Positions 7,636 through 58,696 of a stretch of 64,000 bases of DNA are shown here, piece after piece (position 1 is the stretch's first letter; each line of letters opens with the position of its first letter). The stretch spans positions 30,163 through 94,162 of the forward strand of contig MELC01000044.1 of the NCBI GenBank assembly GCA_001767455.1. Reading direction: 5' to 3'. Source of the DNA: Acidobacteria bacterium RIFCSPLOWO2_12_FULL_66_21. Its GTDB lineage: Bacteria; Acidobacteriota; Vicinamibacteria; Vicinamibacterales; 2-12-FULL-66-21. The translations under genes were made by a program, and so were the position numbers. Under the pieces are notes generated by a model. It saw only the letters and a list, made by a program, of their open reading frames with translations. It was not told the origin of the DNA and searched no databases.

Positions 7636-7917
7636 CTCCGGGCACTGGCCTCCGGCGCCATGCATGGGTACGGCATCGCCACCAAAGTGCGCGAGCGTAC
7701 TGGCGGCGTGCTGAGCATCGAGGATGCGGCGCTCTATCAGTCGCTGCATCGGCTCGATCGGCAGGGCCTGGTCGATGCCGAGTGGGGGCCATCGGAGAAC
7801 AACCGCCGCGCCCGCTTCTACACGCTCACGGCAGCCGGGCGGAAGCGCCTGCGTGAAGAGACCGCCAACTGGCGGCGCTACTCGCGCGCGGTGGAAGCCG
7901 TGCTGCAAGACGCATGA
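7585..7917 (+). CDS. PadR-family transcriptional regulator
   Basis: 'QGTLDLLVLRALASGAMHGYGIATKVRERTGGVLSIEDAALYQSLHRLDRQGLVDAEW...RRARFYTLTAAGRKRL'. The stop overlaps the permease start (ATGA). Confidence 0.9.
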   Translation: MGAPPLFLVQGTLDLLVLRALASGAMHGYGIATKVRERTGGVLSIEDAALYQSLHRLDRQGLVDAEWGPSENNRRARFYTLTAAGRKRLREETANWRRYSRAVEAVLQDA

Positions 7918-10559
7918 AACAACGCCCGTTCTGGTACATCCGGCGTCGATCGGTGCAAGCCGAGGTGGACGAGGAGTTGCGCCTGCATCTCGAGATGCGA
8001 GTTGAAGAGCTCCGATCCACCGGGATGCCCGTCGAGGATGCGCGCCGGGAGGCGCTGAAGCAGTTCGGCGATCTCGAGGGAGCGCGGGAGTACTGCCGGC
8101 GGCAGGATGAGGAAAAGGAGAGCGAGATGCAACGATCCCTGATGTTCCAGGACCTCGGGGAGGACATCCGGATTGGCCTCCGGAGCCTGATGCGCGTCCC
8201 CATCCTGTCTCTGACGGTCATCGTAACGGTGGGGGTCGGCATCGGCGCGACCGCGGCCATCTTCAGCGCGATCGACGCCGCGCTGCTTCGGCCGCTGCCG
8301 TATGCGCATCCCGAACGCCTCGTGCGCATCTACACCGATGCGCCGCCGTTCAAATGGCGTTTCTCCGCCGCAGACTACCTCGCGTTTCGCGAGCAGCAGA
8401 CGCAATTCGAAGAGAGCGCCACCTACACCGACAGGACGGTGATTTACAGCGACGGCGTCTCGTCCGACGTGGCGCGCGCACGGGTGGTCTCGTGGGCGTT
8501 CTTCTCGGTGCTCGCCGTCCGGCCCGCGATCGGCCGCGACTTCGCCGAACCGGACGGGCGGCCGGGCACGCCACCGTCCGTCGTGGCCAGTCACGCCTTC
8601 TGGCAGCAGCGTCTCGGAGGCCGTGCGGATGCGATCGGCCGGCCGATCAAGCTGGATGGCGCCGAGCACACGGTCATCGGTGTACTGCCGGCGCTGTCGG
8701 GGCCGCTCGAACGTCGCCAGGACCTGTTCATCGTTCAGCAGTTCACCCCGCCGCGGCGCAAGGGTCCCTTCCTCTATTCGGTCGTCGCGCGGCTCCCCGA
8801 AGGGACGGATCGATCCCTGGCCGCGGGCGAGCTGCGCGCCGTCAACAAACGGATCTTCCCGATGTGGAAGGCCTCGTACCAGGACGACAGGGCCACCTGG
8901 GGCATGGAGGATCTCAAGGGCGCTGTCGTCGGTGACGTGCACGCAATTGCCGGCCTGGCGCTTGGATCTGTGGCGCTGGTGTGGCTGATCGCATGCGCGA
9001 ATGCGTCGAACCTGCTGATCGCGCGCGTGACGAGCCGCCGGCAGGAACTGGCCGTCCGCGCCGCGCTCGGCGCGTCGCGCGGACGCGTCGTGCGGTATCT
9101 CCTCGCGGAGAGCGCCGTGCTCGCCACAGGCGCCGTTGCGCTCGGCGCGGGCGTCGCCTGGGCCGGCGTCCAACTGCTGCAGGGGATGGGCTCGACCTAC
9201 TTTCCACGGACGCAGGAGATGGCGTTGGATACGCGGGTGGTGTGGCTGCTGGCGGGTCTGGCAACCTGCAGCGGACTGATCTTCGGGCTGGTGCCAGCGC
9301 TGCACGGCGTGGGCGGCTCAGTCGATGCATCGTTGCGATCGCTCGGGCGATCGTCAACCGGCAACCTCGCGGTCCGGCGTCTTCGCCGTGCGCTCGTGGC
9401 CGCACAGTTCGCCATCGCGACGCCGCTCCTCATCGCCGCCGGCCTGCTCCTCTCGAGCCTGAATCAGATGAAGAACGTCGACCTTGGGTTCGATCAGCGC
9501 AATGTGATCACCGGATCGATCCGGCTGCCCGCCGCACAGTATCAGGATGCAGGACGGGTACGAGTGTTCTGGGACGAGCTGGCGCGCCGCGTGACCGCGC
9601 TGCCGGGCGTGGCGGGCGTCGCGTTCACCGACGGCTTGCCGCCCAACGGCGCGAGTAATCGCAATAACTTCGATCTCGAGGATTTCCCGACACCTCCAGG
9701 ACAATCGCAGCCAGTCGCCCCGTGGGTGTCGACGACGCCGGAGTATTTCCGGGTGCTGGGTCTCAGGTTGCTCGAAGGGCGGCTGCTCGACGAACGCGAT
9801 GCACTGACGGAGAATCTCGAAACGGTCGTGGTCGATCGCGCGTGGGCGCGGCGCTTCTTTCCTGACGGAAGCGCCGTCGGCAAGCGGTTCCGCGAAGGCG
9901 GATGCACGGCATGTCCGTGGACCAGCGTCGGCGGCGTGGTGAGCGAGGTGAAATACCTCGGCCTCGACAAGCCGGATGACGGCACCGTCTATTGGCCGAT
10001 GCGAGGAACCGAGCGCGGGCTCGATCGGTTTCTCGTGGTCCGCACGCACGCGAGTCCATCGGGCGTATTGCCGGCCCTGCAGCGGGCGGTGCGCGAGATC
10101 GACCCGTCCGTGCCGCTCTCGAAGGTCGCGACGATGAACGATCTCGTCGCGCAATCGCTCGAGCGTCCGCAGTCGCTGTCGTTCCTGGTGGCGGCGTTCG
10201 CGCTCGTGGCGCTCGTGCTGTCGGTCGTCGGCATCTACGGCGTGATGGGGTACTACGTGCAGCAGCATCGGAAGGACATCAGCATCCGCATGGCGCTCGG
10301 CGGCAGCTCCGCCGACGTGCTGCGGCTCGTGATGGGCGACGGCATGCGCGTCGTCATCGCGGGGATCTTCGTCGGCGCGCTCGCCGCGCTCGGCCTGACA
10401 CGATTGATGTCGAGCCTCCTGTTCGGCGTCAGCGCCGCAGACGCGCTCACGTTCGTGACCGTGAGCGCCGGGCTGGCGATCGTGGCGCTCGCCGCGTGCT
10501 TCGTGCCGGCCCGACGAGCGGTCGGTATCCAGCCGGCAGCCGTCCTGCGAAATGACTAG
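7914..10559 (+). CDS. ADOP-family duplicated MacB/FtsX-like ABC permease (881 aa)
   Basis: N-terminal helical region 'VDEELRLHLEMRVEEL' is typical of PadR-coupled ADOP proteins. It has two MacB-type periplasmic plus FtsX 4-TM halves ('VGIGATAAIFSAIDAALLRPLPY', 'IACANASNLLIARVTSRRQELAVRAALGASRGRVV', 'KDISIRMALGGSSADVLRLVM'). Confidence 0.9.
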   Translation: MKQRPFWYIRRRSVQAEVDEELRLHLEMRVEELRSTGMPVEDARREALKQFGDLEGAREYCRRQDEEKESEMQRSLMFQDLGEDIRIGLRSLMRVPILSLTVIVTVGVGIGATAAIFSAIDAALLRPLPYAHPERLVRIYTDAPPFKWRFSAADYLAFREQQTQFEESATYTDRTVIYSDGVSSDVARARVVSWAFFSVLAVRPAIGRDFAEPDGRPGTPPSVVASHAFWQQRLGGRADAIGRPIKLDGAEHTVIGVLPALSGPLERRQDLFIVQQFTPPRRKGPFLYSVVARLPEGTDRSLAAGELRAVNKRIFPMWKASYQDDRATWGMEDLKGAVVGDVHAIAGLALGSVALVWLIACANASNLLIARVTSRRQELAVRAALGASRGRVVRYLLAESAVLATGAVALGAGVAWAGVQLLQGMGSTYFPRTQEMALDTRVVWLLAGLATCSGLIFGLVPALHGVGGSVDASLRSLGRSSTGNLAVRRLRRALVAAQFAIATPLLIAAGLLLSSLNQMKNVDLGFDQRNVITGSIRLPAAQYQDAGRVRVFWDELARRVTALPGVAGVAFTDGLPPNGASNRNNFDLEDFPTPPGQSQPVAPWVSTTPEYFRVLGLRLLEGRLLDERDALTENLETVVVDRAWARRFFPDGSAVGKRFREGGCTACPWTSVGGVVSEVKYLGLDKPDDGTVYWPMRGTERGLDRFLVVRTHASPSGVLPALQRAVREIDPSVPLSKVATMNDLVAQSLERPQSLSFLVAAFALVALVLSVVGIYGVMGYYVQQHRKDISIRMALGGSSADVLRLVMGDGMRVVIAGIFVGALAALGLTRLMSSLLFGVSAADALTFVTVSAGLAIVALAACFVPARRAVGIQPAAVLRND

Positions 10560-13867: not shown

Positions 13868-15754
13868 GTGGCCGTTATCGCGAGGGTCCGCGACAACCCG
13901 GCCGAGCAACGGAGGAGGAATCTGGACGACACCCTGAAATCCGTGAAGCCCTGGGTCACGTTCGCCGGCGGGGTGCTCATTGTCGCCGTTCTGTACTGGG
14001 CGCAGGCCGTCCTCGTGCCGTTCGCGCTCGCCATCCTGCTCACGTTCGTCCTGACGCCGCCCGTCACCTGGCTCCAGCGGTGGGTCGGCCGTGTTCCGGC
14101 GGTGCTGCTGGCGGTCACGCTGGTCTTCGCGGCGCTCGGTCTCGCCGGCTGGGGTCTGACCCGGCAGATGGACCATCTGGCCGGTGACCTGCCCGGCTAT
14201 CGGGCGAATATCCGGACCAAGATCGCCGACGTGCGTCTGGCGGGCAGGGGCGGCGCGGTCGAGAAGCTGCAGGAAACGCTGGCGGGCATCAAGGCTGACC
14301 TCGACGCGTCGGCGACACCGAGAGGAACGGTGTCGCGGCCCCTCGTGGTCACCTCCAACCAGGTGACGGGTTTTCTGGGCCTGGCGTGGCTCGGGCCCGT
14401 CGTCGGGCCGCTGAGCACGGCGGGACTCATTGCAGCGATGGTCATCTTCATGCTGCTCGAACGCCGCGATCTTCGGGATCGCCTGATCGGGCTGATAGGG
14501 CACGGCCAGCTCGCCACGACCACGAAGGCATTCGACGAGGCCGCCAGTCGCGTCAGCCGGCAACTGCTGATGCAGTCCCTTGTGAGTCTGCTGTACGGCA
14601 TCGCGGTCTTCGTCGGACTGTACTTCCTTCACGTCCCCTATCCACTGGTCTGGGCGACGTTGGGTGCGGCGTTGCGATTCATCCCGTACGTCGGTCCCGT
14701 GCTCGCGGCCGCGGCGCCGATCCTCGTCAGTCTCGCGGCTCTGCAAGGGTGGACTGGTCCAGCGATTGTCCTCGCCTTTTTCGTCGTCCTCGAGCTGTTC
14801 ACGAATCTCGTGCTCGAAACGGCCCTGTATGCCGGGGCGGTCGGCGTGTCGCAGGTGGTGCTGCTCGTGTCCGTCGCGTTCTGGACGTGGCTATGGGGGC
14901 CGCTCGGGCTGCTGATGGCGTCGCCGCTGACCGTGTGCCTCGTCGTGCTCGGCAAGCACGTCCCCGGTCTCGCGTTCGTCGGCCTGCTGATGGACGACAC
15001 ACCGGCGCTCGCATCCGAGTACGGGTTCTATCAGCGCCTGGTGGCGCGCGACCAGAGCGAGGCGGCCGAACTGATCGACAGCCACATCAAGACCGAATCG
15101 CCCTCATCGGTGTACGACGCACTGCTGCTGCCGGCGCTCAGTTATGCCGAGCGTGACCGTGTCGAGCGACGGCTCTCTTCCGAAGAGGAAGCGGCCGTCA
15201 TCGACGCGACCCGGGAGTTGATCTCGGACGCGGCCGGGATGATCCGCCGTCACGCGGAGACGGAGCGACCCGCCGCGGTCGATCCCACGCTTCCGGGACC
15301 GCGCGAGCCGCTGCGCGTACTGGGCTACGCGGTCAATGGTGGTGCCGATGAAGTGGCGCTCGCGATGCTGGCACATCTGCTGGACGATCGGCCAATTGCC
15401 ATGGAGATCACCAGTGTGCGCATGCAGGCGATGGAGCTGGTGTCATTCGTAACAGACCGGAAGTTCTCTGTCGTGTGCTTCGCCGATCTCCCCCCGAGCT
15501 CGTCATCCAAAACGCGGTACCTTGTGAGAAGGCTTCGCTCGGCCGTCCCCGAATTGCGAATCGCGGTAGGCCGATGGGCCCCGGCGGCGCTGGCCGACGA
15601 GAGCCCGCAGGCGCTCCTGGACGCGGGCGCCAATTCCGTCGCCTCTCTGTTGGTCGAGAGTCGGGACTATCTCGGCGGCCTCCTGGAGATGACGCGCCTT
15701 GCAGTCCCGGACACCGCGAATGCCGCGCCAGAAGTCTACGGTGACGCTTCGTAA
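13868..15754 (+). CDS. AI-2E (PerM/YdiK) family transporter fused to a C-terminal B12-binding-like two-part module
   Basis: The membrane domain '[24 protein letters not shown]...[20 protein letters not shown]...' is typical of AI-2E. C-terminal helical cap '[38 protein letters not shown]' plus a Rossmann-like '[23 protein letters not shown]...FSVVCFADL...RIAVGRW'. The start is uncertain (GTG 13868 or GTG 13943). Confidence 0.7.
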
Positions 15755-16128
15755 CGCCGCACGAGGTCGAGCCGTTCCATGCGCGCGAAGTCGGAGTCCA
15801 GCGACCACACGAGGGAGCCGGTTTCCGCTGCGAGCGCCGCGATGAGGAGATCGCCAGACCCGAAGCGCTGACCGGCACCGGCGGCCGTCTCGACCCAGCC
15901 ATCCAGGATGCGCCACGTCTCGTCGGTCGGATACAGCACGGGCAGCGCCGACAGGGCGCGCCGAAGCCGCTTGCGATCCGCCGCGGAAGCGCCGCCGAGA
16001 ATCTCCAGGCGGACCGGCACCGGCAGCGCCACCTCGTCGGCATCGAGCAGTTGCTGGAGCACGCGCGCTTCGGCACCAGCCCCCGATCGAAAGGCCGCAA
16101 TCCAGACCGACGTATCGACAAGGATCAT
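15736..16128 (-). CDS. vapC: Type II toxin VapC (PIN domain)
   Basis: '[14 protein letters not shown]', 'RLEILGG', '[14 protein letters not shown]' and 'SLDSDF'. The start overlaps the vapB stop (ATGA). Confidence 0.9.
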
Positions 16129-16331
16129 CGCGCGGGGCGTGGACGCCGCCGGCTGGCGGGCACGTCAATCTCCAGCCGCACACGGCCCATCAACGCCTTC
16201 AACTCGTCGATCCGCCGGCGGCGCACGAGTTCCCTGAGCGCCATGACGACGGTGTCGGTCTTCGACTTGAAGCCGAGCGTCGTGCGGGCCTCTTCGAGCA
16301 GGTCTTCGGGAAGGTCGAGCGTCGTACGCAT
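16125..16331 (-). CDS. vapB: Type II antitoxin VapB (ribbon-helix-helix/DUF2191-type)
   Basis: '[47 protein letters not shown]'. Confidence 0.85.
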
Positions 16332-16458
16332 ACGAATAATCATCAATCGTATGCCTACAGATGTCAAACCCCAGGCTGAACGTATGACCCAGACGACGGG
16401 GGTCGAGCGCACCTGCTCGACGGCCAGGCGATCGTCCCGGTAGCCAGGTCCGGCTACG

Positions 16459-18126
16459 TCACCTGACACCGTCGCGCCGCAGGCGCTCGCGGTCGATGAC
16501 CCGCCCTCCCTGAATCACCTCGTGAATCCGCCGCACGTGGCGAATGTCGTCGAGCGGGTTGGCACTGAGCAGCAGAAGATCCGCCCATTGCCCCGGCGCG
16601 ATCGTGCCAATCTCGGGCGCGTTGAGCACGCGCGCCGCCGCGCCCGTTGCGGCGACGAGCGCCTCGGCTGGCGAGAAACCGGACTCGACCAGCGCTTCCA
16701 GTTCGTGCTGCACGCCGAGCGGAAACGGGCTGTCCGTGCCGGCGGCGACGAGAACGCCGGCGTCATGGTAGCGGCGCACGCCGGCCTCGAGCCGCTGTAC
16801 CGCAGCGAGGAGAGCCGGACGACCGCGCTGCGCCGCGGCGTCGGTCCCATAGACAGGACGGTATTGCGGCTGAAGGAATGGCGCCACGTCGTCGGCCTGG
16901 AGCAGCGCGGGATCGTCCATCACGCGCACCATGGACAACCTGAGGGCCGCAGTCGGCACGATCCACTCACCGGACGCGCGCGCGAGCGCGACATAGTCAC
17001 CTCGCATCGTTCCGCGGTCGCGGAAGCAGTCGAGCACGTGCTCCGCGCCGTCAATGCCGGCCGCGACAACCGCCAGAATGTGCCCGCAGTGGCCGCTCAC
17101 TGGCATGCCGTAGCGGTGCGCCTCGCGGACGACGGTCGCGGCGCGCTCCCAACCCTGGAATCCCCGCTCTTTGGTGTACGCAGCGCCCATGCCCGCATTG
17201 ATGGCGACCCCCCGCGCGATATCGCCCGCGTCGGACACCATCTGGTTACCGAGCGTGGAATACCCTCCGCCGTGGTGGAACATCGCGCCCGCATAGACGA
17301 TGCGCGGTCCCTCACGCCCACCGGCCTCGACAATGTTCCGAAGGTCCGCCGTTTTCACGCGCTGCGACGCGATGTCGCGGACCGTCGTCACCCCGTTGTG
17401 CAGCCACGACAGCAGCGATGCGTCGTCCCAGATGTGCGCGTGCAGATCGATCAGGCCGGGAACGAGGTATTCGCCGGCGCCGTCGAGCACGCGTATGCCG
17501 GAGGCGTCAATCGAACCAGAGGGAGCGACGCGCGCGATGCGACCGTTGCGCACGAGCACGTCGCGCGGCTCCGACAAAGGCGAGCCGCGACCATCGATCA
17601 CGCGCGCGCCGCGAATGAGGACGGGCCGCGGTGCCGCGCGCACCTGATACTGAAGCGGCCACGGTACCGGCCGGATCGCGCCGTTCGCCGAACGAAGCCG
17701 CAGGCCGCTCGATGACAGGTAGAGGGCGCTGCCGTCGCGCGCGAATCGCGCCTCGACCGCCGGCTCGTCCGACACCGTGGAGGCCCTGCCGTTCAGGCCT
17801 GCGGGTCCGTCGAATGGCGCGCGCCAGAGCAAGTCGTGCTCGACCCACATCGCGTGACCGTCGGCGAGGAGCCGAAGGCTGGCGGGAAGGGACGGGAACC
17901 GCTCGACCGCCTGGCGCGTTGCGTCGAGTCGAATCCACTGCGCGCGCTCGATCGATCCCAACTCCCCTGGCGGCAATTGTGTCGCGACAAGGATTGCGTC
18001 CGAGGCCGGACTCCAGCCGGCCGTGCCCCACGCGGCGGTCGCGACGCCAAGATCGCGCGTCTGATCGACCCGCTCGACGGGTGGTCCCGCCGGATCCACC
18101 AGCCGTAGATGTCCGGCGGTGAACAC
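16459..18126 (-). CDS. Amidohydrolase-family domain, 3' part of a TolB-propeller/amidohydrolase gene interrupted by an in-frame TAG
   Basis: 'VLIRGARVIDGRGS...GRIARV...LDGAGEYLVPGLIDLHAHIW' (HxH metal motif), 'VSGHCGH' and 'AAGTDSP'. The frame is continuous with ORF 18133-19488 except for TAG 18133-18135. Confidence 0.75.
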   Translation of the reverse strand: MFTAGHLRLVDPAGPPVERVDQTRDLGVATAAWGTAGWSPASDAILVATQLPPGELGSIERAQWIRLDATRQAVERFPSLPASLRLLADGHAMWVEHDLLWRAPFDGPAGLNGRASTVSDEPAVEARFARDGSALYLSSSGLRLRSANGAIRPVPWPLQYQVRAAPRPVLIRGARVIDGRGSPLSEPRDVLVRNGRIARVAPSGSIDASGIRVLDGAGEYLVPGLIDLHAHIWDDASLLSWLHNGVTTVRDIASQRVKTADLRNIVEAGGREGPRIVYAGAMFHHGGGYSTLGNQMVSDAGDIARGVAINAGMGAAYTKERGFQGWERAATVVREAHRYGMPVSGHCGHILAVVAAGIDGAEHVLDCFRDRGTMRGDYVALARASGEWIVPTAALRLSMVRVMDDPALLQADDVAPFLQPQYRPVYGTDAAAQRGRPALLAAVQRLEAGVRRYHDAGVLVAAGTDSPFPLGVQHELEALVESGFSPAEALVAATGAAARVLNAPEIGTIAPGQWADLLLLSANPLDDIRHVRRIHEVIQGGRVIDRERLRRDGVR

Positions 18127-18132
18127 GGCGAT

Positions 18133-19488
18133 CTAGTTGCCGTCGGGCGACCAGAGCGCCGCGTCGATGTCCTGCCCTATCGCGGCGAGCACGCGACGTT
18201 CGCCGGTCGTCGCGTTTGCCGCGACGAGGTCGAACGATCGGCCGGGCCGCTCGCGTCGCGTCCACGCGATCTCCTGGCCGTCGCCCGACCAGGTGAGCAC
18301 GTTGTCGCCTGCCTCGGGCGCGGGCCCGAGCGCGTGCGGCTTCGCGCCGACCTCTCCGACCCAGAGGGCGTCGAGGGCGATCATCGCGATGCGTCGCGCG
18401 TCAGGGGACAGTGCGATGCTCGTGAAGCCCTTCGCGGTACGCTTCGATGCGGGTTCCGGAAAGCGCACCGGCCGCAGTGTCCCGCGACGCCGCGCGAAGC
18501 TCACGCGCGCGCGAAACGGAATGGGCGTGGGCGCGCCTCCGTCCGGCGACACGCGCCAGAGCCCACCGTCCGCGGAGTACACGAGGGCGCGGCCGTCGGG
18601 GGTCCAGCGAAGGCGGAACGTGACCACGTCGTCCTGATTGGTGAGCGGCCGTGCCACGCCGTCGCTTGCTTGCACCCAGACCTGCCACCGCTCCTTCGCG
18701 TCGCGCGAGAGAAACGCGAGACGCGAGCCGTCGGGCGACCAGGCCGGTGTCAGGCCGCGTGAGGTGGTCAGCGCCCGCGCGTCGCCGCCATCGGCCGGGA
18801 CTTCCCAAATGCGTCCGTCGCCTCGGACGGCATTCGAGGCCGTGTTGACGAATGCGAGGCGCGTCCCGTCGGCCGACCACGCGGGCGCCCCGTTGCGCGG
18901 CGTGAACCCGGGAAGCCGTGGCGCGGCGGGAAGACCGTCGATGCGCGTGATGCGCTCGGTGCCGCTGTCGATGTCGAGCACGGCGAGGGTGTCGCCGACC
19001 GCGTACGCCACATGGCGGCCGTCGGGCGCCCAGGCCGCTGACGCGTACGCGAAATAGGGGATGGGCCGCGACGCCAGCCGGCGCGCCGGACCGCCGGACG
19101 CAGGCATCACCCACAGCGCGCGTCCACCCGGGCGGTCGCTTTCGAAGATGATGCGCTGACCGTCGGGAGAGATCGCGGGATCGAAATCCTCGGCGGTGTC
19201 GCGGACGGCGTCGGTGATGGCGGCCGCGTCGCCGCCATCAATCGGCACCCGCCAGAGCTGGCCGAGCAGGTCGAAAACGATCCAGCGGCCGTCAGGCGAG
19301 ATGTCGAAGGCCAGCCGCGTGCCTTCGCTCGTTGCGAACGAGACGGTGTCGAACGCGTCGCGGGCCGCCACGGGCGGACCGCCGCGATTCTGACCGAGCG
19401 CGTTGAAGGAGACGACAGCGGAGGGAACGAGAGCGAGCGTGAGCAGCGCGCGCGAGGATCGCATGGTCTGCCTCCGATGCGCGCGCAC
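18133..19488 (-). CDS. TolB-like WD40 beta-propeller domain with signal peptide, 5' part of the same interrupted gene
   Basis: Signal peptide 'MRSSRALLTLALVPSAVVSF'. Eight or more blades carry the 'SPDG..IAF' signature (ISPDGRWIVF, ISPDGQRIIF, WAPDGRHVAY, WSADGTRLAF, WSPDGSRLAF, WTPDGRALVY ...). It ends 'WSPDGN' followed by TAG. Confidence 0.75.
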   Translation of the reverse strand: MRAHRRQTMRSSRALLTLALVPSAVVSFNALGQNRGGPPVAARDAFDTVSFATSEGTRLAFDISPDGRWIVFDLLGQLWRVPIDGGDAAAITDAVRDTAEDFDPAISPDGQRIIFESDRPGGRALWVMPASGGPARRLASRPIPYFAYASAAWAPDGRHVAYAVGDTLAVLDIDSGTERITRIDGLPAAPRLPGFTPRNGAPAWSADGTRLAFVNTASNAVRGDGRIWEVPADGGDARALTTSRGLTPAWSPDGSRLAFLSRDAKERWQVWVQASDGVARPLTNQDDVVTFRLRWTPDGRALVYSADGGLWRVSPDGGAPTPIPFRARVSFARRRGTLRPVRFPEPASKRTAKGFTSIALSPDARRIAMIALDALWVGEVGAKPHALGPAPEAGDNVLTWSGDGQEIAWTRRERPGRSFDLVAANATTGERRVLAAIGQDIDAALWSPDGN

Positions 19489-19717: not shown

Positions 19718-21277
19718 ATGAGATCCGCCACTGCGCGCCGGCTGCTGATTGCCGCTGCGGTGATGGCGGTCGTCGCCGCGCTCGCGGCTCTCGCGCTTCG
19801 CCAGGCGCTCGGCGGCGATCGCCTGCGCGCCGCCGTCGAGACGCGGTTGTCGGCCATGCTCGGACAGCCCGTCTCCATCGGCCGCCTGAGCGTCGACTTC
19901 TTCCCCCGCCCCTCGCTTGCCGGTGGCAACGTCCGTATCGGAGACGCGCGTGTCGTGGCGCCCCGGTTGGACGTCGACCGCGTCCGCATGCTGCCGCGGG
20001 TGCGATCGCTCTGGACGGGTCATGTGATCATCGAGCAGGTCGAGCTCGACGGATTCATCGCCTCCGTGCTGCGCGATCGTCAGGGCCGCTGGCACGTGCC
20101 CGCGGTCGTTCCGGTGCCGTCGAAGGATGCGAGAGCGGGCGCGGCCGTCCAGCGCGTGCGCGTGGCCAGCGGACGCGTGCGCGTGTTCGACCAGGCGTCC
20201 GGCGACGGCGTCGGCAAAACCGCCAGCATTGACGATCTGCAGGCAGATGCGACGGTCGAGGGCGGCAGCCTGAGGCTCGCTCCAATCACCGGACGGATTG
20301 GCCGCGCGAGGATTTCCGGTGAGGCGAGGACTGACGCCCGGGCTGTCCGTCTGACGTTCGGGGCGGACGCGATCGGGGATGACGATCTGCCGCTGTTTCT
20401 GCGTCTGCTTGGCAGCGACCGTCCTGCGTTTCTCCGATTGGGCGAACCGGCGTCGGTATCCGTCGCCGTCGAAGTGGATCGCGCCTCGTCGGTCATGACC
20501 GGGACGGGCGTGCTAGGTGCACCGCTGGTCCTCCTCGAATCGTTGCGGCTGCAGCGATTCGAAGCACCGTTCGCAATAAAAGGAACGATTCTTCGCTTCG
20601 ATCCGACCGCGTTCGCGATGTATGGCGGCACGCACCGCGGCGCGGTCGCTGTGGATCTCCGAGAGACGCCGGCGGCGTGGACGACGGACAGTCGGGTGAA
20701 CGGTATGAGCGTGGGGGAATTCCTGCGCGCGCTGACCGGTCGCGATCAGGGTCTCGACGGCACGGCGTCGATCGACGCGGCGCTCGGCGGGCGTGTCGGC
20801 GAACCACTCGACCGGACGGTGCGCGGCCGCGCGCATGTCACGGTGACCAGCGGGGTCATCCGCAATTTCCCGCTGCTCGCGACGATCAACCGCGCCCTGC
20901 GGCTCGCCGAACAGGAGAGCGGCGACACGCGATTCGAACGCCTGACGGCGAACGTGATGGTGGCCGCCGGTCACGCCACGACCGACGACCTCGTGCTCGA
21001 GGCCGCCCACGCGCGGGTGGAGGCTGCGGGCCGCATCGGCGCCGACCGCTCGCTTGCGCTCGGCGGCCGGGCGATCGTCGCCGCCGAACATGCGGCACGG
21101 GCTGTCGCGAGCGTCCACGAGATCGCACGGTTGCGCAACAGCCGCGGGGAAATCGTGGTGCCGCTGACGATCTCGGGCACCCTCGACGCGCCGTCGATCG
21201 ACATCGACCTGAAGGCGGCGATCGGCAAGGGCCTGATGGATGAACTGCGGCGCCGCCTGCGCCGAATCATCCGATAG
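19718..21277 (+). CDS. AsmA-family outer-membrane biogenesis protein
   Basis: N-terminal anchor 'RRLLIAAAVMAVVAALAALAL'. 'LSAMLGQPVSIGRLSVDFFPRPSLAGGNVRIGD' and C-terminal 'GEIVVPLTISGTLDAPSIDIDLKAAIGKGLMD' are typical of AsmA. Confidence 0.8.
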   Translation: MRSATARRLLIAAAVMAVVAALAALALRQALGGDRLRAAVETRLSAMLGQPVSIGRLSVDFFPRPSLAGGNVRIGDARVVAPRLDVDRVRMLPRVRSLWTGHVIIEQVELDGFIASVLRDRQGRWHVPAVVPVPSKDARAGAAVQRVRVASGRVRVFDQASGDGVGKTASIDDLQADATVEGGSLRLAPITGRIGRARISGEARTDARAVRLTFGADAIGDDDLPLFLRLLGSDRPAFLRLGEPASVSVAVEVDRASSVMTGTGVLGAPLVLLESLRLQRFEAPFAIKGTILRFDPTAFAMYGGTHRGAVAVDLRETPAAWTTDSRVNGMSVGEFLRALTGRDQGLDGTASIDAALGGRVGEPLDRTVRGRAHVTVTSGVIRNFPLLATINRALRLAEQESGDTRFERLTANVMVAAGHATTDDLVLEAAHARVEAAGRIGADRSLALGGRAIVAAEHAARAVASVHEIARLRNSRGEIVVPLTISGTLDAPSIDIDLKAAIGKGLMDELRRRLRRIIR

Positions 21278-21339: not shown

Positions 21340-21497
21340 GGAGATATCCGTGGGTGCGCGTCGGCCGCGTGCCCGCGGTGGGGGAGTCGTTCGAGTTCGA
21401 CGGGCTGATGGTGCAGGTGCTCGAGGCCGAGCGTCGCCGCATCCATAAGGTGCGCTTCCGCCGGGCGGAAGTGGAGCCCGTCAGCGCCGACCGCTGA
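21340..21497 (+). pseudogene. CorC_HlyC transporter-associated domain remnant (C-terminal ~45 aa of a CNNM/HlyC-family gene)
   Basis: 'VGRVPAVGESFEFDGLMVQVLEAERRRIHKVRFRR' parallels the C-termini of the intact paralogues at 61249-62565 ('GRVPESGEQVVIEGVDVEIEVIEGDAV') and 62562-63851 ('GRPAVVGDTVRYERLQFEVTAVKGHGV'). Nothing upstream is homologous. Confidence 0.55.
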
Positions 21498-28618: not shown

Positions 28619-29242
28619 ATGAATAACGACGCGCCCGGGCGTGGCGGACCGGCCCCGCACGGCATCCCCGGCGGGCCCGAGTCGACCTTCCACCTCCTGG
28701 AACGGGTGCGCGCGGGCGACCAGGCGGCGCTCGATGCCCTGTTCGCGCGCTACCTCGTGCCGCTGCGCCGCTGGGCGAGCGGGCGGCTTCCCCGGTGGGC
28801 CCGGGACATGTCCGACACCCAGGACCTTGTCCAGGAAACCCTGGTCAATGCGTTTAAGAGAATTGAGGCATTCGATCCACGCGGAGAAGGGGCGCTCCAC
28901 GCCTACCTGCGCCAAGCCCTGATGAACCGCATTCGTGACGAACTGCGGAGATTCGACCGGCGGGGATCCCCCGCCCAACTCGACCCGCAGCAGGCTGACA
29001 CGTCGCCGTCTCCGCTCGAGCAGGCGATCGGCCGCCAGGCAACGGACCGATACGAGCAGGCGCTCGAACGCCTCAATCCGGGAGACCGCGAAGCGATCAT
29101 CGCGCGGGTGGAACTGGGGTGTTCGTACGAGGAGCTCGCGATCGCGCTCGGCAGGCCATCCGCCGACGCGGCCCGCAAGGCCGCGCAGCGCGCGTTGATC
29201 AAACTCGCGGCGGAGATGAAGCGTGCAGACTCAAGCGGCTGA
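28619..29242 (+). CDS. ECF-type RNA polymerase sigma factor (kinase-associated type)
   Basis: Region 2 'LDALFARYLVPLRRWA...TQDLVQETLVNAFKRIEAFD'. Region 4 'REAIIARVELGCSYEELAIALGRPSADAARKAAQRALIKL'. No anti-sigma gene follows; instead a Ser/Thr kinase gene overlaps the 3' end. Confidence 0.85.
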   Translation: MNNDAPGRGGPAPHGIPGGPESTFHLLERVRAGDQAALDALFARYLVPLRRWASGRLPRWARDMSDTQDLVQETLVNAFKRIEAFDPRGEGALHAYLRQALMNRIRDELRRFDRRGSPAQLDPQQADTSPSPLEQAIGRQATDRYEQALERLNPGDREAIIARVELGCSYEELAIALGRPSADAARKAAQRALIKLAAEMKRADSSG

Positions 29243-32117
29243 CGATCAGCAGTTCCCGCCCGACCTCGAGGCCATCGCCGCCGCGATCCTCGACGGCACG
29301 CCCATCGACTGGAAACAGATTTCGCAGGACACCGACCCGGAGCTCGTGCAGCAGCTCCGCGTGCTCGCCGACCTCGTCACGCTGCACAAGAGCCTCTCGA
29401 GCGACAGCGACGTCACCGTCACAGAGACCCGACCGCCCGAGCTCGCGGCCGGCCCCCAATGGGGACCGCTGAAGCTGCTCGAAGTCATCGGCGAGGGAGC
29501 GTTCGGCCAGGTCTTCCGCGCCTGGGATACGCGGCTCGATCGCGAAGTCGCGCTGAAGCTGATGCACGCCCAATCGGCCGCCTCCGACGACGCGGAGGCT
29601 TCGATTCACGAGGGCCGGCTGCTGGCGCGCGTCCGCCATCCCAACATCGTCACGGTGTACGGGGCCGAGCGCATCGACGGACGCGTCGGGATCTGGACCG
29701 AGTTCATCCGCGGGCGCACGCTCGCGTATCTCATGAAGGAGCACGGCCGCTTCAGCGCCCACGAAGCGACCGCGATCGGCATCGACCTGTGCCGCGCCCT
29801 GAGCGCGGTGCATGCGGCCGGACTCCTCCATCGCGACGTGAAGCCGCAGAACGTCATGCGGGAGCAGGGCGGGCGCATCGTCCTGATGGACTTCGGCGCG
29901 GGCAAGGAACGGCGAGTGACGCCGTTCGACTCGGGAACGGACCTCGCGGGAACGCCGCTCTACACCGCGCCTGAGCTCTGGCGCGGCGGTCCGGCGACGC
30001 CGCAATCCGACATCTACAGTGTCGGCGTCGTGCTCTTCTACCTTGTGAGCGGCGCATTCCCGGTGCAGGGAGCGAGCATCGCGGAGATCCAGGAGGCACA
30101 CCACGCCGGCCGCCGGCGCCTGCTGCGCGACGCGAGGCCGGACGCGCCCGACAGCTTCATCGACGTCGTCGAACGCGCGCTGGAGCCCGATCCGTCCAGG
30201 CGATACGAGAGCGCGGGCGCGTTCGAGGCGGCGCTCAAGCGCGCGCAGCATGCGCTGGCGCCATCGGCGTGGCGCCGCCGAATCCTGATCATAGGCGGTG
30301 TTACGGCAGCGGCAGTCATCGTCGTCGCGTTGACCTTCGCCCCGGGGCCGGCTCGGATAGGACAGCTCCTTCGGGCGGGCTTCGGCTCGCCGGGCGGCGG
30401 GAACGCGCCGGCAGTCGACGTGACGTCCACGTCGGTGCGGCAGCTGAAGCTGCCGCCGTTCTCGCTCATGGGCCGTCCGTCGCGCGACGGACGCTTTCTT
30501 CCGTACGTGGACTTCGACGGCCAGCTCTGGATCTGGGAGATCGCAACCGGCCAGTCTCACCAGGTGACGAAGAAGGGGGACCCGCGAGAGTGGACGTGGG
30601 GATCTCTGATGGCTCCCGACGGCAGCCGCGTCGCGTACACCTTTGTGAGACCGGACGGTGTCTACGAGTTGCGCGTGGTCGAGTCCGACGGCCGGTGGTC
30701 GCGTGTCATTCTCCCGGGCGAAACCGGACCCGCCGCCGAGCCTGTGCCGCTCGAGTGGTCACGCGACGGACAGCAGATCCTGTATCGATTGTCGCGCGAG
30801 AACGGAAGCAGTGAGCTGGCGCTGGTCGCGCCGGAAGGCGGAGCGCGCGTCACGCTGGCGTCGTTCCGCAAGGGAACGCCCAAGCACGCGAGCATTTCGC
30901 CGGATGGCCGGTTCGTCGTGTACGACCTGCCGGCGAGCGACCACGCGGCGGAGCGGGATCTCATGATCGTGCCGAGCGACGGCTCTTCAGCACCGAAGCC
31001 GCTTCTCACCGGACCATTCAACGACCAGCTTCCGACGTGGACGCCGCACGGCAACGGGATCTTTTTCGCCAGCGATCGGTCGGGTCAGATGAGCGGCTGG
31101 CTGCTGCCGATGTCAGAGGACAAGGTTGTCGGAGAAGCGACGTTCGTGGCGAGAAATCTCGGCCGCCTGTGGCCGCTCGGCCTGACCGACACCGGCACAT
31201 ATTTCTACGGGCTGCAGGTCGGCGCAGCGGAGGTGTACACCGCGACGATCGACCTGACAGGAGCTACCCCTGCGGGAGCCTCGGTGCGCATCTCGCAGAG
31301 CGTCACGCTCGGGCATATGGGGCCGGCATGGTCACCCGATGGGCGCAGCATCGCCTACGTGGCACTCAAAGGGCAGACGACGCAGGACCGCGACTCGAAC
31401 ACGCTTGTCATCCAGGATGTCGCCTCCGGGACGGCGCGCCACCTCGACACCCCCGCCCTCTCGCACGTCGGCATCGTCGCGCCGCGGTGGTCACCGGACG
31501 GACGTCAACTGCTCGTTCGTGGCAGAGACATCACCAACCGCGCTGGCCTCTACGTCGTGGACGTGCAGACCGGCGCATTGGCGGCGGCGCTTCCCGTTGG
31601 CAACACGAACCGCTATTACTGGTCGCCGGACGCACGCGCGATTGTGTACTTGCACGCCCTCACAACGATCCTGTCGCGGTCGATCGGCACAGAACGCGAG
31701 ACGGTACTGTTCGACGCGGCGGCGCACGATCTGCTGCGAGTCATCTCGTTCGGCCCATCGCCGGATGGCGACGGGTTCGCGCTCTCCGCCATGAAGAAGA
31801 ACCAACGCTGGGCGTTGCTGGTTTACAGGTCTTCCGGCGTCTTGCAGGAGATCTACAGCCCGGACAAGACGCCGATGGTCTTCCAGGGATGGACGCCGGA
31901 CGCTCAGCAGATCCTGTTCACCGTTGTGGGACAGCAACCCCAGCGGCTTCTGAGGATAAACGCCGCCGGGGGAGAACCGGTCGATACGGGACTCGCGATT
32001 CACGGCTTCACCGAGGTGAACTTCGTTTCCCTCAGCCCTGACGGGACGCGCGTCGCCTACACCGCGGGCCAGCCGGGCGTTGAGATCTGGATGATGGAGA
32101 AGTTCCTGCCGCGGTAA
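29223..32117 (+). CDS. Ser/Thr protein kinase with a TM segment and C-terminal TolB-like beta-propeller
   Basis: 'IGEGAFGQVFRAWDTRLDREVALKLM', 'HRDVKPQNVM', 'LMDFGAG' and 'GTPLYTAPE'. TM segment 'ILIIGGVTAAAVIVVALTF'. Multiple 'SPDG' blades (MAPDGSRVAY, ISPDGRFVVY, WSPDGRSIAY, WSPDGRQLLV, LSPDGTRVAY). GTG start overlaps the sigma gene by 20 nt. Confidence 0.9.
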   Translation: MQTQAADDQQFPPDLEAIAAAILDGTPIDWKQISQDTDPELVQQLRVLADLVTLHKSLSSDSDVTVTETRPPELAAGPQWGPLKLLEVIGEGAFGQVFRAWDTRLDREVALKLMHAQSAASDDAEASIHEGRLLARVRHPNIVTVYGAERIDGRVGIWTEFIRGRTLAYLMKEHGRFSAHEATAIGIDLCRALSAVHAAGLLHRDVKPQNVMREQGGRIVLMDFGAGKERRVTPFDSGTDLAGTPLYTAPELWRGGPATPQSDIYSVGVVLFYLVSGAFPVQGASIAEIQEAHHAGRRRLLRDARPDAPDSFIDVVERALEPDPSRRYESAGAFEAALKRAQHALAPSAWRRRILIIGGVTAAAVIVVALTFAPGPARIGQLLRAGFGSPGGGNAPAVDVTSTSVRQLKLPPFSLMGRPSRDGRFLPYVDFDGQLWIWEIATGQSHQVTKKGDPREWTWGSLMAPDGSRVAYTFVRPDGVYELRVVESDGRWSRVILPGETGPAAEPVPLEWSRDGQQILYRLSRENGSSELALVAPEGGARVTLASFRKGTPKHASISPDGRFVVYDLPASDHAAERDLMIVPSDGSSAPKPLLTGPFNDQLPTWTPHGNGIFFASDRSGQMSGWLLPMSEDKVVGEATFVARNLGRLWPLGLTDTGTYFYGLQVGAAEVYTATIDLTGATPAGASVRISQSVTLGHMGPAWSPDGRSIAYVALKGQTTQDRDSNTLVIQDVASGTARHLDTPALSHVGIVAPRWSPDGRQLLVRGRDITNRAGLYVVDVQTGALAAALPVGNTNRYYWSPDARAIVYLHALTTILSRSIGTERETVLFDAAAHDLLRVISFGPSPDGDGFALSAMKKNQRWALLVYRSSGVLQEIYSPDKTPMVFQGWTPDAQQILFTVVGQQPQRLLRINAAGGEPVDTGLAIHGFTEVNFVSLSPDGTRVAYTAGQPGVEIWMMEKFLPR

Positions 32118-47655: not shown

Positions 47656-47783
47656 CGTGGTCGAGCGTGTGTTCGCATTCGGCAAACCGAGGTACACTCC
47701 TGGAATATCCCTCATGGCGCTGAACCCTGCTGTGCAATTGGGCACACGGGGCGACCCGGGGGCGGCATAACATCCGCTCGTCC

Positions 47784-48854
47784 ATGCTCCGGACCGCCGA
47801 GCTCCTCCGTCAGATCCTGGTCCCTTTTCTCTTGATCGGCGGGTCGCTGCTCGGCGTGCTGCTCGCCTATCTCGTCATCCAGCGCGTGATTCGTGACCTG
47901 GCCGCAAGGCGGCGCCGGATGCTCGTCACGCGGTATCGACCGGTGATCGACGCGATCACACAGTTCGGTCCGACGCCGCAGGCGCTCGATCGGCTCTGCC
48001 GGGCGCCGGCATCGCACCGGTCGATCGTCGCCGGCCTCCTGCTGGCGCCGCTGCGCTCGGCGCGTGGCGACCTCGTCTCGCACGTGCGGCAGGCGGCGGT
48101 GGCGATCGGGCTCATTGACCACTGGCTCGCCGGTCTGCAGGATCGACGTTGGTGGCGGCGCACGGAGGCCGTCAGGGCGCTCGGGTCCGTCGGGGAGCTG
48201 TCGGCGCTGCCAGCCCTCATCCGGGCGCTTGATGACGAGCACGAAGAAGTTCGGGCGGCAGCGGTCGAGGCGGCCGGCCTTGTCGGGGACGCGCGCGCGA
48301 TCCCTGCGCTCCTCGGGCACCTCGCCGACGGCTCGCATTACCAGCGCGCGCGGGTTGTGGAGGCGCTGCGCGTCCTCGGGCCGCCGGTCACGCCTGCCCT
48401 CGTCGAGCTTGCGCGCGCGCGTCCGGACCAGACCCGGCTTGTGGCGGACGTACTCGGGCTGATTGGGACGGTCGCCGCGATCGATCCGTTGCTGCAGTGG
48501 TGCGGAGACTCGCGCAGCGAGGTGCGCGCCGCCGCGCTCGCGGCCCTCGGATCCATCGGTCTCGACGACCGGAGCTATTACTACGCGCTGCGGGCGCTCG
48601 GCGATCGCGATCCGCAGGTGCGCGCCATGGGCGCTCGCGCGCTCGGTCGGAGCTCCCGGCAGGAGGCAGCCTCCTACCTCGCCGAGCGGCTCGACGATGA
48701 ATGGCTGGCGGCGGCACATGCGGCCGCCGCGCTGCGCCGGCTCGGCGCAGCGGGACGCGTCGCGCTCGAAGCCCGTGCACACGACCAGGGACAGGCCGGC
48801 GACCTCGCGCGCCAGATGCTGTGGGAGCGGCAGCCGATCGCCGCTGGGGCCTGA
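47784..48854 (+). CDS. Membrane-anchored HEAT-repeat protein
   Basis: N-terminal TM segment 'ILVPFLLIGGSLLGVLLAYLVI'. Five or more HEAT/PBS-lyase-type repeats ('RRTEAVRALGSVGELSALPALIRALDDEHEEVRAAAVEAAGLVGDARAIPALL'). Confidence 0.75.
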   Translation: MLRTAELLRQILVPFLLIGGSLLGVLLAYLVIQRVIRDLAARRRRMLVTRYRPVIDAITQFGPTPQALDRLCRAPASHRSIVAGLLLAPLRSARGDLVSHVRQAAVAIGLIDHWLAGLQDRRWWRRTEAVRALGSVGELSALPALIRALDDEHEEVRAAAVEAAGLVGDARAIPALLGHLADGSHYQRARVVEALRVLGPPVTPALVELARARPDQTRLVADVLGLIGTVAAIDPLLQWCGDSRSEVRAAALAALGSIGLDDRSYYYALRALGDRDPQVRAMGARALGRSSRQEAASYLAERLDDEWLAAAHAAAALRRLGAAGRVALEARAHDQGQAGDLARQMLWERQPIAAGA

Positions 48855-56135: not shown

Positions 56136-56249
56136 GTCCATTTCGGGGGTCTGACCCCAGTTTGGCCGCCGCATGCACATTTCGGGGTCAGACCCCGTTT
56201 CGACCGTCGCGTGCACATTTCGGGGTCAGACCCCGGTCTGGAGGCCCGC
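56136..56249 (+). repeat. Three tandem ~38-bp repeats, each containing the palindrome CGGGGTC(A/T)GACCCC
   Basis: Units at 56136-56173, 56174-56211 and 56212-56249. The first 24 nt of units B and C are identical (TGCACATTTCGGGGTCAGACCCCG). Unit A carries the complementary centre (GGGGGTCTGACCCC). The array ends at the RBS (GGAGG 56240-56244) and the TTG start of the permease. Confidence 0.85.
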
Positions 56250-58694
56250 TTGAGCAGTCTGCTGCAGGATCTTCGCTATACCCTTCGCGGCCTCCGCAAG
56301 AGCCCCGGGTTCGCGACCGTCGCGATCCTGACGCTCGCGCTCGGCATCGGCGCCAACACCGCGATCTTCAGCCTGGTCAACGCGGTCGTGCTCAGGCCGC
56401 TCCCGTACCCCGAACCGCAGCGGCTGATGTTCATCACCAGCCAGTTTCCGACGCTGGGGTTCGACCAGTTCTGGGTCTCCGCTCCCGAGTTCCTCGAGTT
56501 CGGCCGCCGCAACCAGGCGTTCGAGGCGGTGGGCGGCTACACCGTGCGCGCCGCGAACCTCGGCACCGACGTGCCGAGCCGGCCGGTCACGGCACTCGTC
56601 ACGCACGAGCTGATGCAGGCACTCGGCGTGCCGCCGATCCGCGGGCGGGCCTTCACGCTCGCCGATACGCTCCCGAATGCCGAGGACGTCGCCATCCTCT
56701 CTTCTGAGCTCTGGCAACGCGCGTTCGGGGAAAACGAGGCCACGATCGGCCAGGTTGTCGTCATCGACGGCGTGAAGACGCGGATCGTCGGCGTCATGCC
56801 GCGCGCGTACGACATCCACGATCAGAAAGTCGAACTGTGGCTGCCGCTCACGATCGATCCGGCGAACCCCGGCAACCGCGGCGGACACTTCCTGTATCTC
56901 GTCGGCCGTCTGAAGCCGGACATCACGCTGGCGCAGGCGCGGGCCGATCTCGAGTCCCAGCTCACGACGTGGAAGGACGTCGCGCCCGACAGCCACACGC
57001 CGAATCCGACCCGCCACCGCATTCGGATCGACCCGCTTCAGGAAGACATGATCGGCGCGGTCACGCGTCCGCTCTGGATCCTGCAGGGGGTCGTCGTCTT
57101 CGTTCTCCTCATCGCGTGCGCGAACCTCGCGAACCTGCTCCTGGCGCGCGCCGACTCGCGGCAGCACGAGTTCGCCGTCCGCACGGCGCTCGGCGCCGGT
57201 ACGGGACGGCTGCTGCGACAGTTCCTGACCGAAGGGGTGGTCCTGTCGATTGCCGGCGGCGCACTGGGGGCCGCCGCGGCGGCGCTGGGCCTCCGGCTGC
57301 TCGTCGCGACGCACCCTGACAGCATTCCTCGGTCGCAGGGGATCGGTGTCGATCTCACGGTTCTGGCCTTCACGCTGGCGATCGCCGTCGTCACCGGCGT
57401 ACTCTTCGCGCTTGCGCCGATGCTCCACCTCCGGCAGGCGAGCGTAAGCGGCTCGCTGAAAGAAGCGGGAGCGCGGACCTCGTCGCGTTCGGCGAAGGCC
57501 AGGCTGCGCGGCGGCCTCGTGATTGTCGAGGTCGCGCTCGCCGTGATCCTGGTCGTCGGCGCCGGACTGCTGCTGCGCAGCTTCTGGAACCTGATGAACG
57601 TCGACGCCGGCTTCAGCCGCTCGCAGCTCACCACGTTCCGTCTCGTCCTGCCGGCCGCGCTGTATCGTGACGGTCAGGCCAGGGCGAGCTTCTTCGATCG
57701 GCTCGTGACGAAACTCGGGGAGCTGCCCGGCGTGGAAAGCGCGGCCGCGATGAGCGGCTTGCCGCCGCTCCGGCAGGTCGACGCGAACGACACGCAGTTC
57801 GAAGGCGTCCCGCCGCCGCCCGCCGGTCCGATCCAGAACGTGGACTACTACCAGATCGTCACACCGGGCTATCTCGACACGATGGGCATTCCGCTCGTCA
57901 ACGGCCGCGCGTTTCGTCCGGAAGACGCGACGGGTGCGCCGATCCTGCTGGTGAACGAGACGCTCGCGAAGGTGTTCTATCCAGGCCAGGATCCCATCGG
58001 CCGCCGGATGCGTCCGGGCGGCCCGCCGAACGCGCCGTGGTTCACGATCGTCGGCGTGGTGAAAGACGTGAAACAGGGGGGTGTCGGGACCAAGACCGGC
58101 ACGGAACTCTACCTGCTCGCGGAACAACTGCCCGCCGTCGCTGGCTTCGGCGTCGCCAACATGAACCTCGTCGTGCGCTCGTCACTGCCGTTCGAGTCGC
58201 TCGCGCGCAACCTGCGCGACACGGTCCGCGCGATGGACCCGACGCTGCCGCCCGCGAACATGCGCTCGATGGACGACGTGTTCTCCGAGTCAGTCGCGCG
58301 GCCCCGCTTCCTCGTGCAGGTGCTCGGGATCTTCGCGGCGCTGGCGCTCGTGCTGGCTGCCGCCGGCACCTACGGCATCCTCTCGTATCTCGTCAGCGAA
58401 AGACGGCAGGAGATTGGCATCCGGATGGCGCTCGGCGCCACACCGGAGAGCGTCCTGCGCCTCATCATGCGTCAGGGTTTGACGCTCACAATCGGCGGAC
58501 TCGTCGTTGGACTCGCCGGCGCGTACATCTTGACGCGCCTCATGCAATCACTCCTGTTCCAGGTTCAACGGGCCGATCCGCTGACGGTTGCGGCGGTCGC
58601 GGTGTTCGTCGCCGCCGTCGGGTTTGCAGCCTGTGTCTTCCCGGCACGGCGCGCGACGATGGTCGACCCGGTCCGTGTGCTGAGGAGTCAATAG
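56250..58694 (+). CDS. MacB/FtsX-like duplicated ABC permease (ADOP-type, no PadR-coupling N-domain)
   Basis: '[50 protein letters not shown]', '[30 protein letters not shown]' and '[21 protein letters not shown]'. The TTG 56250 start is preferred over ORF-track 56211, which would translate the repeat array. Confidence 0.85.
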
Positions 58695-58696
58695 CC

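Follow-up and report, generated by a model that had tools for sequence, protein, structure and literature searches.

Within a 64,000-nucleotide (nt) stretch of the genome of Acidobacteria bacterium RIFCSPLOWO2_12_FULL_66_21 (contig MELC01000044.1, positions 30,163 to 94,162 of the forward strand; hereafter the window), a minus-strand gene for an exported beta-propeller–amidohydrolase protein is interrupted by an in-frame TAG codon. This codon is very probably a very recent single-nucleotide nonsense mutation, TGG (Trp) to TAG, that exists beside an intact allele. Most likely it is an ordinary mutation that inactivates the gene, rather than a special signal for decoding. The interruption was first noticed from the letters of the sequence alone, and the original prediction offered recent pseudogenization, sequencing error, read-through and downstream re-initiation as explanations. 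The codon, the ancestral gene and the two parts into which it is divided are as follows, with all positions being those of the window.

18133-18135, minus strand: in-frame TAG nonsense codon, read from the sequence; TGG in orthologues and in the intact allele.
16459-19464, minus strand: whole ancestral gene (1001 codons plus stop) for an exported protein with tandem PD40/tricorn-like beta-propellers and an amidohydrolase domain; intact as protein P0123 in sister contigs.
18136-19464, minus strand: upstream fragment P0121, 443 amino acids (aa), comprising a signal peptide, propeller 1 and roughly the first 100 residues of propeller 2; its domain limits are approximate and taken from the strand pattern of a structural model of the orthologue P0001.
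16459-18132, minus strand: downstream part (557 sense codons plus TGA), comprising the remainder of propeller 2 and then the amidohydrolase domain, without an export signal of its own.

Read directly from the minus strand, the segment at 18105-18150 contains the codons tcg ccc gac ggc aac TAG atc gcc gtg ttc acc, which bears out the original description, and the open reading frames (ORFs) at 18133-19488 and 16459-18126 do lie in a common frame. When 16459-19488 is translated, its 1009 sense codons are broken by a single internal stop (…ALWSPDGN-stop-IAVFTAGH…), which is codon 444 when counted from ATG 19464, or codon 452 from GTG 19488. The shared frame thus stands as first given, but the limits of the second ORF need a small adjustment: the downstream frame is already open immediately after the TAG, and the listed ORF begins two sense codons (ATC GCC) later.

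This fused frame is not a product of chance, because its translation matches proteins of ~1000 aa over 95-100% of its length, with recognizable domains on either side of the stop. A homology search with the fused translation as query, with X at the stop, returned 3122 homologues at E <= 1e-10. Nearly all of the best 120 are single ~1000-aa proteins (95-100% query coverage, 38-81% identity, E = 0), and the propeller and amidohydrolase Pfam domains are both present in the ~1000-aa homologues. In the window gene itself, PD40 repeats (PF07676, E = 7.5e-33) were detected upstream of the stop and Amidohydro_1 (PF01979, E = 3.5e-20) downstream of it; gene calls on identical contigs also carry Tricorn_N and Tricorn_2nd. 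The homologues are collinear across the junction, in agreement with the proposal of a single ancestral gene encoding a signal peptide, a beta-propeller and an amidohydrolase. Orthologues routinely encoded as two genes with a break at this point would have spoken against that proposal; none of the more than 100 full-length homologues is split there. A scan of species-representative genomes yielded only distant relatives, at <= 40% identity.

In an alignment of 119 homologues, the stop falls within the motif W-S-P-D-G-x-[W/H/Y]-[IL]-A-F, whose S, D and G are invariant. The original prediction was correct in recognizing a propeller-blade motif here but not in assigning the stop to a variable position: the column is constrained, being occupied by W (35), H (34) or Y (34) in most of the 119 sequences. 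The closest homologues, P0001-P0003 (76-81% identity), all have W at this column (3/3). Orthologue DNA from two loci (L087 and L088) reads TGG where the window reads TAG; thus, a single G-to-A transition accounts for the stop. TGG had been named among the candidate ancestral codons, and the suggested comparison with orthologues returned precisely this codon, with Trp in the closest relatives.

The intact allele was also found within the same natural population. Exact copies of the 555-aa downstream product were located on 15 contigs, and of the 443-aa upstream product on 21; these TAG-allele contigs come from more than ten ENA, JGI, Logan and NCBI assemblies. The samples behind them include SRR3990171, JGI 3300025311 and 3300025325, and runs of the ERZ272547xx-548xx and ERZ49031xx series. 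All 15 TAG-allele loci that were fetched read TAG, with 0-10 differences from the window over 1.5-13.7 kb. Several carry private single-nucleotide polymorphisms (SNPs) linked to the TAG, so these contigs represent separate read sets. Both half-products fall in a 90%-identity cluster whose members include two 1001-aa proteins, P0123 and P0124. By-eye comparison showed P0123 to be the fused translation of the window from ATG 19464 except for a Trp at the stop, and P0124 to carry one further change, D→Y. Three contigs bear the intact allele: L089, L090 and L091, from ENA ERZ27254869, Logan SRR3989307 and JGI 3300025327. On each of them the gene is flanked as in the window, by an AsmA-like gene on the upstream side and VapB-PIN on the downstream side. 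The three contigs differ from the window at 2 of 10047, 2 of 5308 and 3 of 5321 nt, respectively. The difference common to all three is window position 18134, where the coding strand has G in the intact allele and A in the window. The site is therefore a real TGG/TAG SNP segregating within one near-clonal natural population, and outgroup comparison shows TAG to be the derived state. The option of a recent pseudogenization is thereby backed twice, by the TGG of the orthologues and by an otherwise near-identical intact TGG allele in the population.

Further SNPs segregate among assemblies of this population, at window positions 20216, 23182, 18969, 17101 and 14506-14926. Two short members of the protein cluster, P0126 (396 aa) and P0127 (489 aa), carry C-terminal tails that are unrelated and derive from contigs only 1.8-2.5 kb long; they resemble artefacts of contig ends or of chimeric assembly, not additional alleles. 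Neither allele was matched when the JGI metagenome collection was scanned for exact patterns; the records are evidently absent from it, since protein look-up did bring up JGI contigs of both alleles.

Apart from the TAG, no sign of decay was found in conserved columns, invariant residues, the ratio of nonsynonymous to synonymous substitution rates (dN/dS) or lineage-specific nonsynonymous and synonymous (N/S) changes. Every one of the 68 columns invariant among 57 homologues is kept in the window gene, including the six His, Lys and Asp residues of the predicted metal site. Among 122 near-invariant columns, four differ in the window, the same number as in the intact P0001, and at columns conserved in at least 95% of sequences the window deviates at 2 of 127, compared with 0-3 for full-length intact relatives. 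The dN/dS value against P0001 is 0.19, with similar values on the two sides of the stop (0.22 upstream and 0.17 downstream), and changes specific to the window lineage give N/S = 36.5/112.5, which does not exceed the 46.8/95.2 of the intact sister lineage. Together with the distance of 2-3 nt to the intact allele, the lack of decay indicates that the mutation is very young.

The consequences of the stop can be viewed in light of the layout of the gene, for which the following additional features were recorded.

19471-19475, minus strand: GGAGG Shine-Dalgarno sequence before ATG 19464 (anti-Shine-Dalgarno duplex of -9.5 kcal/mol, versus -3.2 for GTG 19488).
19393-19464, minus strand: probable Sec-type signal peptide (MRSSRALLTLALVPSAVVSFNALG, followed by Q), judged by eye from the translation.
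16498-17469, minus strand: Amidohydro_1 domain (Pfam; residues 222-545 of the downstream translation).

ATG 19464, behind the GGAGG, is probably the true start of the upstream gene, rather than GTG 19488. The N-terminus that follows reads as a probable Sec-type signal peptide; the equivalent region of P0001 is modelled as a low-confidence helix. The AlphaFold2 model of this intact orthologue, built from a 57-sequence alignment (mean predicted local distance difference test score 92, predicted template modelling (TM) score 0.91), is all-beta over residues ~38-608, followed by an alpha/beta domain from ~616. The stop corresponds to W445 of P0001, directly before strand 446-450. As modelled, it would fall within the second of two propellers, ~100 residues from the beginning of that propeller and ~170 residues before the amidohydrolase domain; these limits are approximate, the number and extents of the propellers being taken from the strand pattern together with the Tricorn_N and Tricorn_2nd Pfam hits. 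In the downstream part, the conserved residues H683, H685, K773, H800, H817 and D919 (numbered from GTG 19488), which by the precedent of the superfamily are putative metal ligands (HxH, K, H, H, D), are all intact.

The G-to-A transition at window position 18134 converts the Trp codon into a stop, and on this layout termination there would leave a 443-aa exported fragment consisting of propeller 1 and part of propeller 2. The amidohydrolase part would go untranslated or at best be weakly re-initiated, without an export signal. The modelled position of the stop inside the second propeller suggests loss of function. The window allele is most likely a loss-of-function allele, that is, a nascent pseudogene.

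Several observations sit less easily with a simple inactivating mutation. Among assemblies, the nonsense allele outnumbers the intact one (21 contigs versus 3), unlike what is expected of a strongly deleterious mutation, and it occurs on slightly differing linked backgrounds, since one TAG contig (L096) has the C variant at 20216, as TGG contigs do. The TAG allele is thus old enough to have spread, recombined or been mixed in consensus assemblies. Moreover, the sequence leaves room for low-level near-cognate read-through of the UAG and for use of GTG 18126, the latter solely through termination-reinitiation. The predominance of TAG and its occurrence with either variant at 20216 could reflect clonal expansion, hitch-hiking, recombination or a mixed-strain consensus. 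There is an outside chance that the TAG allele is spreading in the subsurface population as an adaptive loss or through re-purposing (as an exported propeller-only fragment or a re-initiated cytoplasmic amidohydrolase), or is kept functional by appreciable UAG read-through. The C variant at 20216 was seen with TGG on L090 and L091 and with TAG on L096, and its presence on both alleles suggests recombination, recurrent mutation or mixed-strain consensus. As in ordinary nonsense pseudogenes of bacterial populations, the window shows a single-base stop, an intact allele and no secondary decay; it differs from ordinary segregating nonsense alleles only in that the nonsense form is assembled more often than the intact one.

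A functional split gene, in which the ribosome would restart just past the stop, is quite improbable. The first codon at which it could do so is as follows.

18124-18126, minus strand: GTG, the first possible restart codon, 6 nt past the TAG, without a Shine-Dalgarno sequence (-2.1 kcal/mol; upstream sequence CCGACGGCAACTAGATCGCC).

On this reading, restart at this GTG, or at another start, would give a cytoplasmic protein, made of a partial propeller and the amidohydrolase, that is still useful, possibly beside the exported propeller fragment. Termination-reinitiation at spacings of ~6 nt does occur in bacteria, the amidohydrolase domain is undamaged and retains its predicted metal ligands, and the 555-aa product is annotated by gene callers. 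Against this, GTG 18126 has no Shine-Dalgarno sequence (-2.1 kcal/mol; the window's good starts reach -9.5 to -12), and the product would lack a signal peptide and begin with ~165 residues of an incomplete propeller, so that misfolding is likely; in addition, none of the more than 100 homologues is split here. No internal start of the downstream part has a good Shine-Dalgarno sequence, the best being that of the TTG at codon 56 (-7.1 kcal/mol), still within the propeller remnant. Independent initiation at GTG 18126 or at other internal starts was rejected for want of a good Shine-Dalgarno sequence.

Highly improbable, too, is a programmed or tolerated recoding of the stop, whereby a suppressor tRNA, pyrrolysine, a reassigned code or a stimulatory context would keep the full-length protein in production. 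The remainder of the gene is indeed perfectly preserved and the TAG allele is common, the 100 nt past the stop fold slightly better than shuffled sequences, and an A following UAG is not known as the strongest termination context in Escherichia coli. However, the lack of decay is explained equally well by a young mutation lying 2-3 nt from an intact allele, and the stop is kept in no relative: 0 of 119 homologues are interrupted here, W, H or Y being found instead. For the 103 nt from the stop onward, the minimum free energy is -46.6 kcal/mol (z = -1.81), a stability matched by 10 of 200 shuffles; such a z-score is unremarkable for a coding sequence of 70% GC. Neither a tRNA with a CUA anticodon (ARAGORN, covering only these 64 kb of the genome) nor an Rfam element was found in the window. 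Programmed read-through, as initially entertained, is therefore left without support, with the stop not conserved, no suppressor tRNA and an unconvincing fold.

Many ordinary genes of the window also end in TAG. In a tally of 46 coding-like ORFs, ~20 end in TAG, 21 in TGA and 5 in TAA; these figures are rough, since the gene set was crudely derived from G+C content at third codon positions (GC3) and includes some shadow ORFs. TAG is, by this rough count, unusually frequent as a terminator across the window, and genes that end in it include those for a 1733-aa FG-GAP/MBG protein, the AsmA-like protein and MacB-type permeases. Two other pairs of long ORFs are joined in the same frame around a TAG, at 53736 (GSDH/PAS-histidine kinase) and 56085 (MFS/MacB). 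Because these pairs join unrelated families, TAG is an ordinary terminator here. Reassignment of TAG is ruled out by the stop tally and by these two pairs. The only tRNA reported by the ARAGORN search is a doubtful 90-nt tRNA-Ala(GGC) at 20919-21008 on the minus strand, antisense inside the AsmA-like gene (19718-21277, plus strand); it is probably a false positive, with no Rfam tRNA there at the gathering threshold.

Next to no credence can be given to a sequencing or assembly error, in which the true sequence would be TGG and the TAG an artefact of the window's assembly: TGG does occur in three assemblies of the same population, and metagenome consensus sequences may hold errors, but TAG recurs on 21 contigs from more than ten assemblies produced by differing pipelines (MEGAHIT k141 contigs, JGI, Logan and an NCBI genome), several with linked SNPs of their own, a recurrence that random substitution errors would not produce, so that this option of the original prediction is rejected.

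With the nonsense mutation as the preferred explanation, the kind of protein affected can be considered. The window gene belongs with a widespread family of ~1000-aa fusions of PD40/tricorn-like tandem propellers to an amidohydrolase, with which it is collinear over 95-100% of its length at 38-81% identity and shares one Pfam set (PD40, Tricorn_N, Tricorn_2nd and Amidohydro_1). PD40 propeller repeats in the N-terminal 600 residues and a C-terminal Amidohydro_1 domain are both present in the window; the single uninterrupted frame is lost through the TAG and is present over both parts in the sister allele P0123. At the site itself, the family has an aromatic residue, whereas the window allele has TAG. 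Family members are annotated as 'amidohydrolase family protein' or 'Tol biopolymer transport system component/imidazolonepropionase-like amidohydrolase'; those hits that are named belong to assemblies of Gemmatimonadota and of Pyrinomonadaceae (Acidobacteriota). A literature search found no characterized member of the family, and no full-length solved structure of it was among the structure matches.

The C-terminal ~390 residues of the P0001 model resemble peptide-bond amidohydrolases, namely the Lys/Arg carboxypeptidase Cc2672, Sgx9260-type prolidases and ochratoxinases (PDB 3mtw, 3mkv, 3feq/3n2c, 2p9b, 2qs8, 8ihq and 4c60), with target-normalized TM scores of 0.71-0.78 and E values of 1e-19 to 1e-21. 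Sequence matches to this group were also obtained; sequence identity to it is low, at 20-25%. These enzymes are stand-alone proteins of ~400 aa, whereas the window domain is fused to propellers; the window gene does not reach the NCBIfam amidohydrolase cut-offs (111 versus 500 bits). As for the propellers, TolB and the tandem propellers of tricorn protease (1k32) have PD40-type SPDG blades like those of the window gene. The Foldseek match to 1k32 is weak (TM 0.21, 14% identity), and the cut-off of the TolB equivalog TIGR02800 is missed (109.4 versus 343.15 bits); identity as TolB or tricorn protease is ruled out by these two scores. By analogy with these families, the intact protein may be an exported hydrolase whose propellers gate the access of peptide-like substrates.

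The surroundings of the gene yielded several further observations. A VapB antitoxin gene (16125-16343) and a gene for a PIN-domain VapC toxin (15736-16128), both on the minus strand and overlapping by 4 nt, lie directly downstream of the interrupted gene, and this pair adjoins TAG and TGG alleles alike. The only other PD40 protein found in the window is a 964-aa Ser/Thr protein kinase (29223-32117, plus strand) with C-terminal PD40 propeller repeats; it and the amidohydrolase fusion are not paralogues. An orphan ORF (21354-21497, plus strand) of 47 aa, or 64 aa in one assembly, sits between the AsmA-like gene and that for the 1733-aa FG-GAP/MBG protein. According to gene calls on identical contigs it matches only CorC_HlyC, and it may be what is left of a gene of the CNNM/CorC type, such as those of the intact pair at 61249-63851. 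The plus strand also carries three paralogous genes for MacB_PCD/FtsX permeases (7914-10559, 56211-58694 and ~58700-61117), the last two in tandem. The ORF that contains the third, 58037-61117, overlaps the end of the preceding permease gene; thus, its real start is probably later. Finally, two mirror-image ORFs of 356 aa, at 47712-48782 (minus strand) and 47784-48854 (plus strand), both have coding-like GC3 values of 0.80-0.84.

The finding points to no new coding rule or system. For annotation, the two gene calls (443 aa and 555 aa) represent a single gene, to be recorded as a disrupted allele or pseudogene rather than as two proteins. For the biology of this uncultured population, the locus offers a clean case of a loss-of-function SNP with both alleles coexisting, and the TGG/TAG SNP could serve to track strain dynamics across samples.

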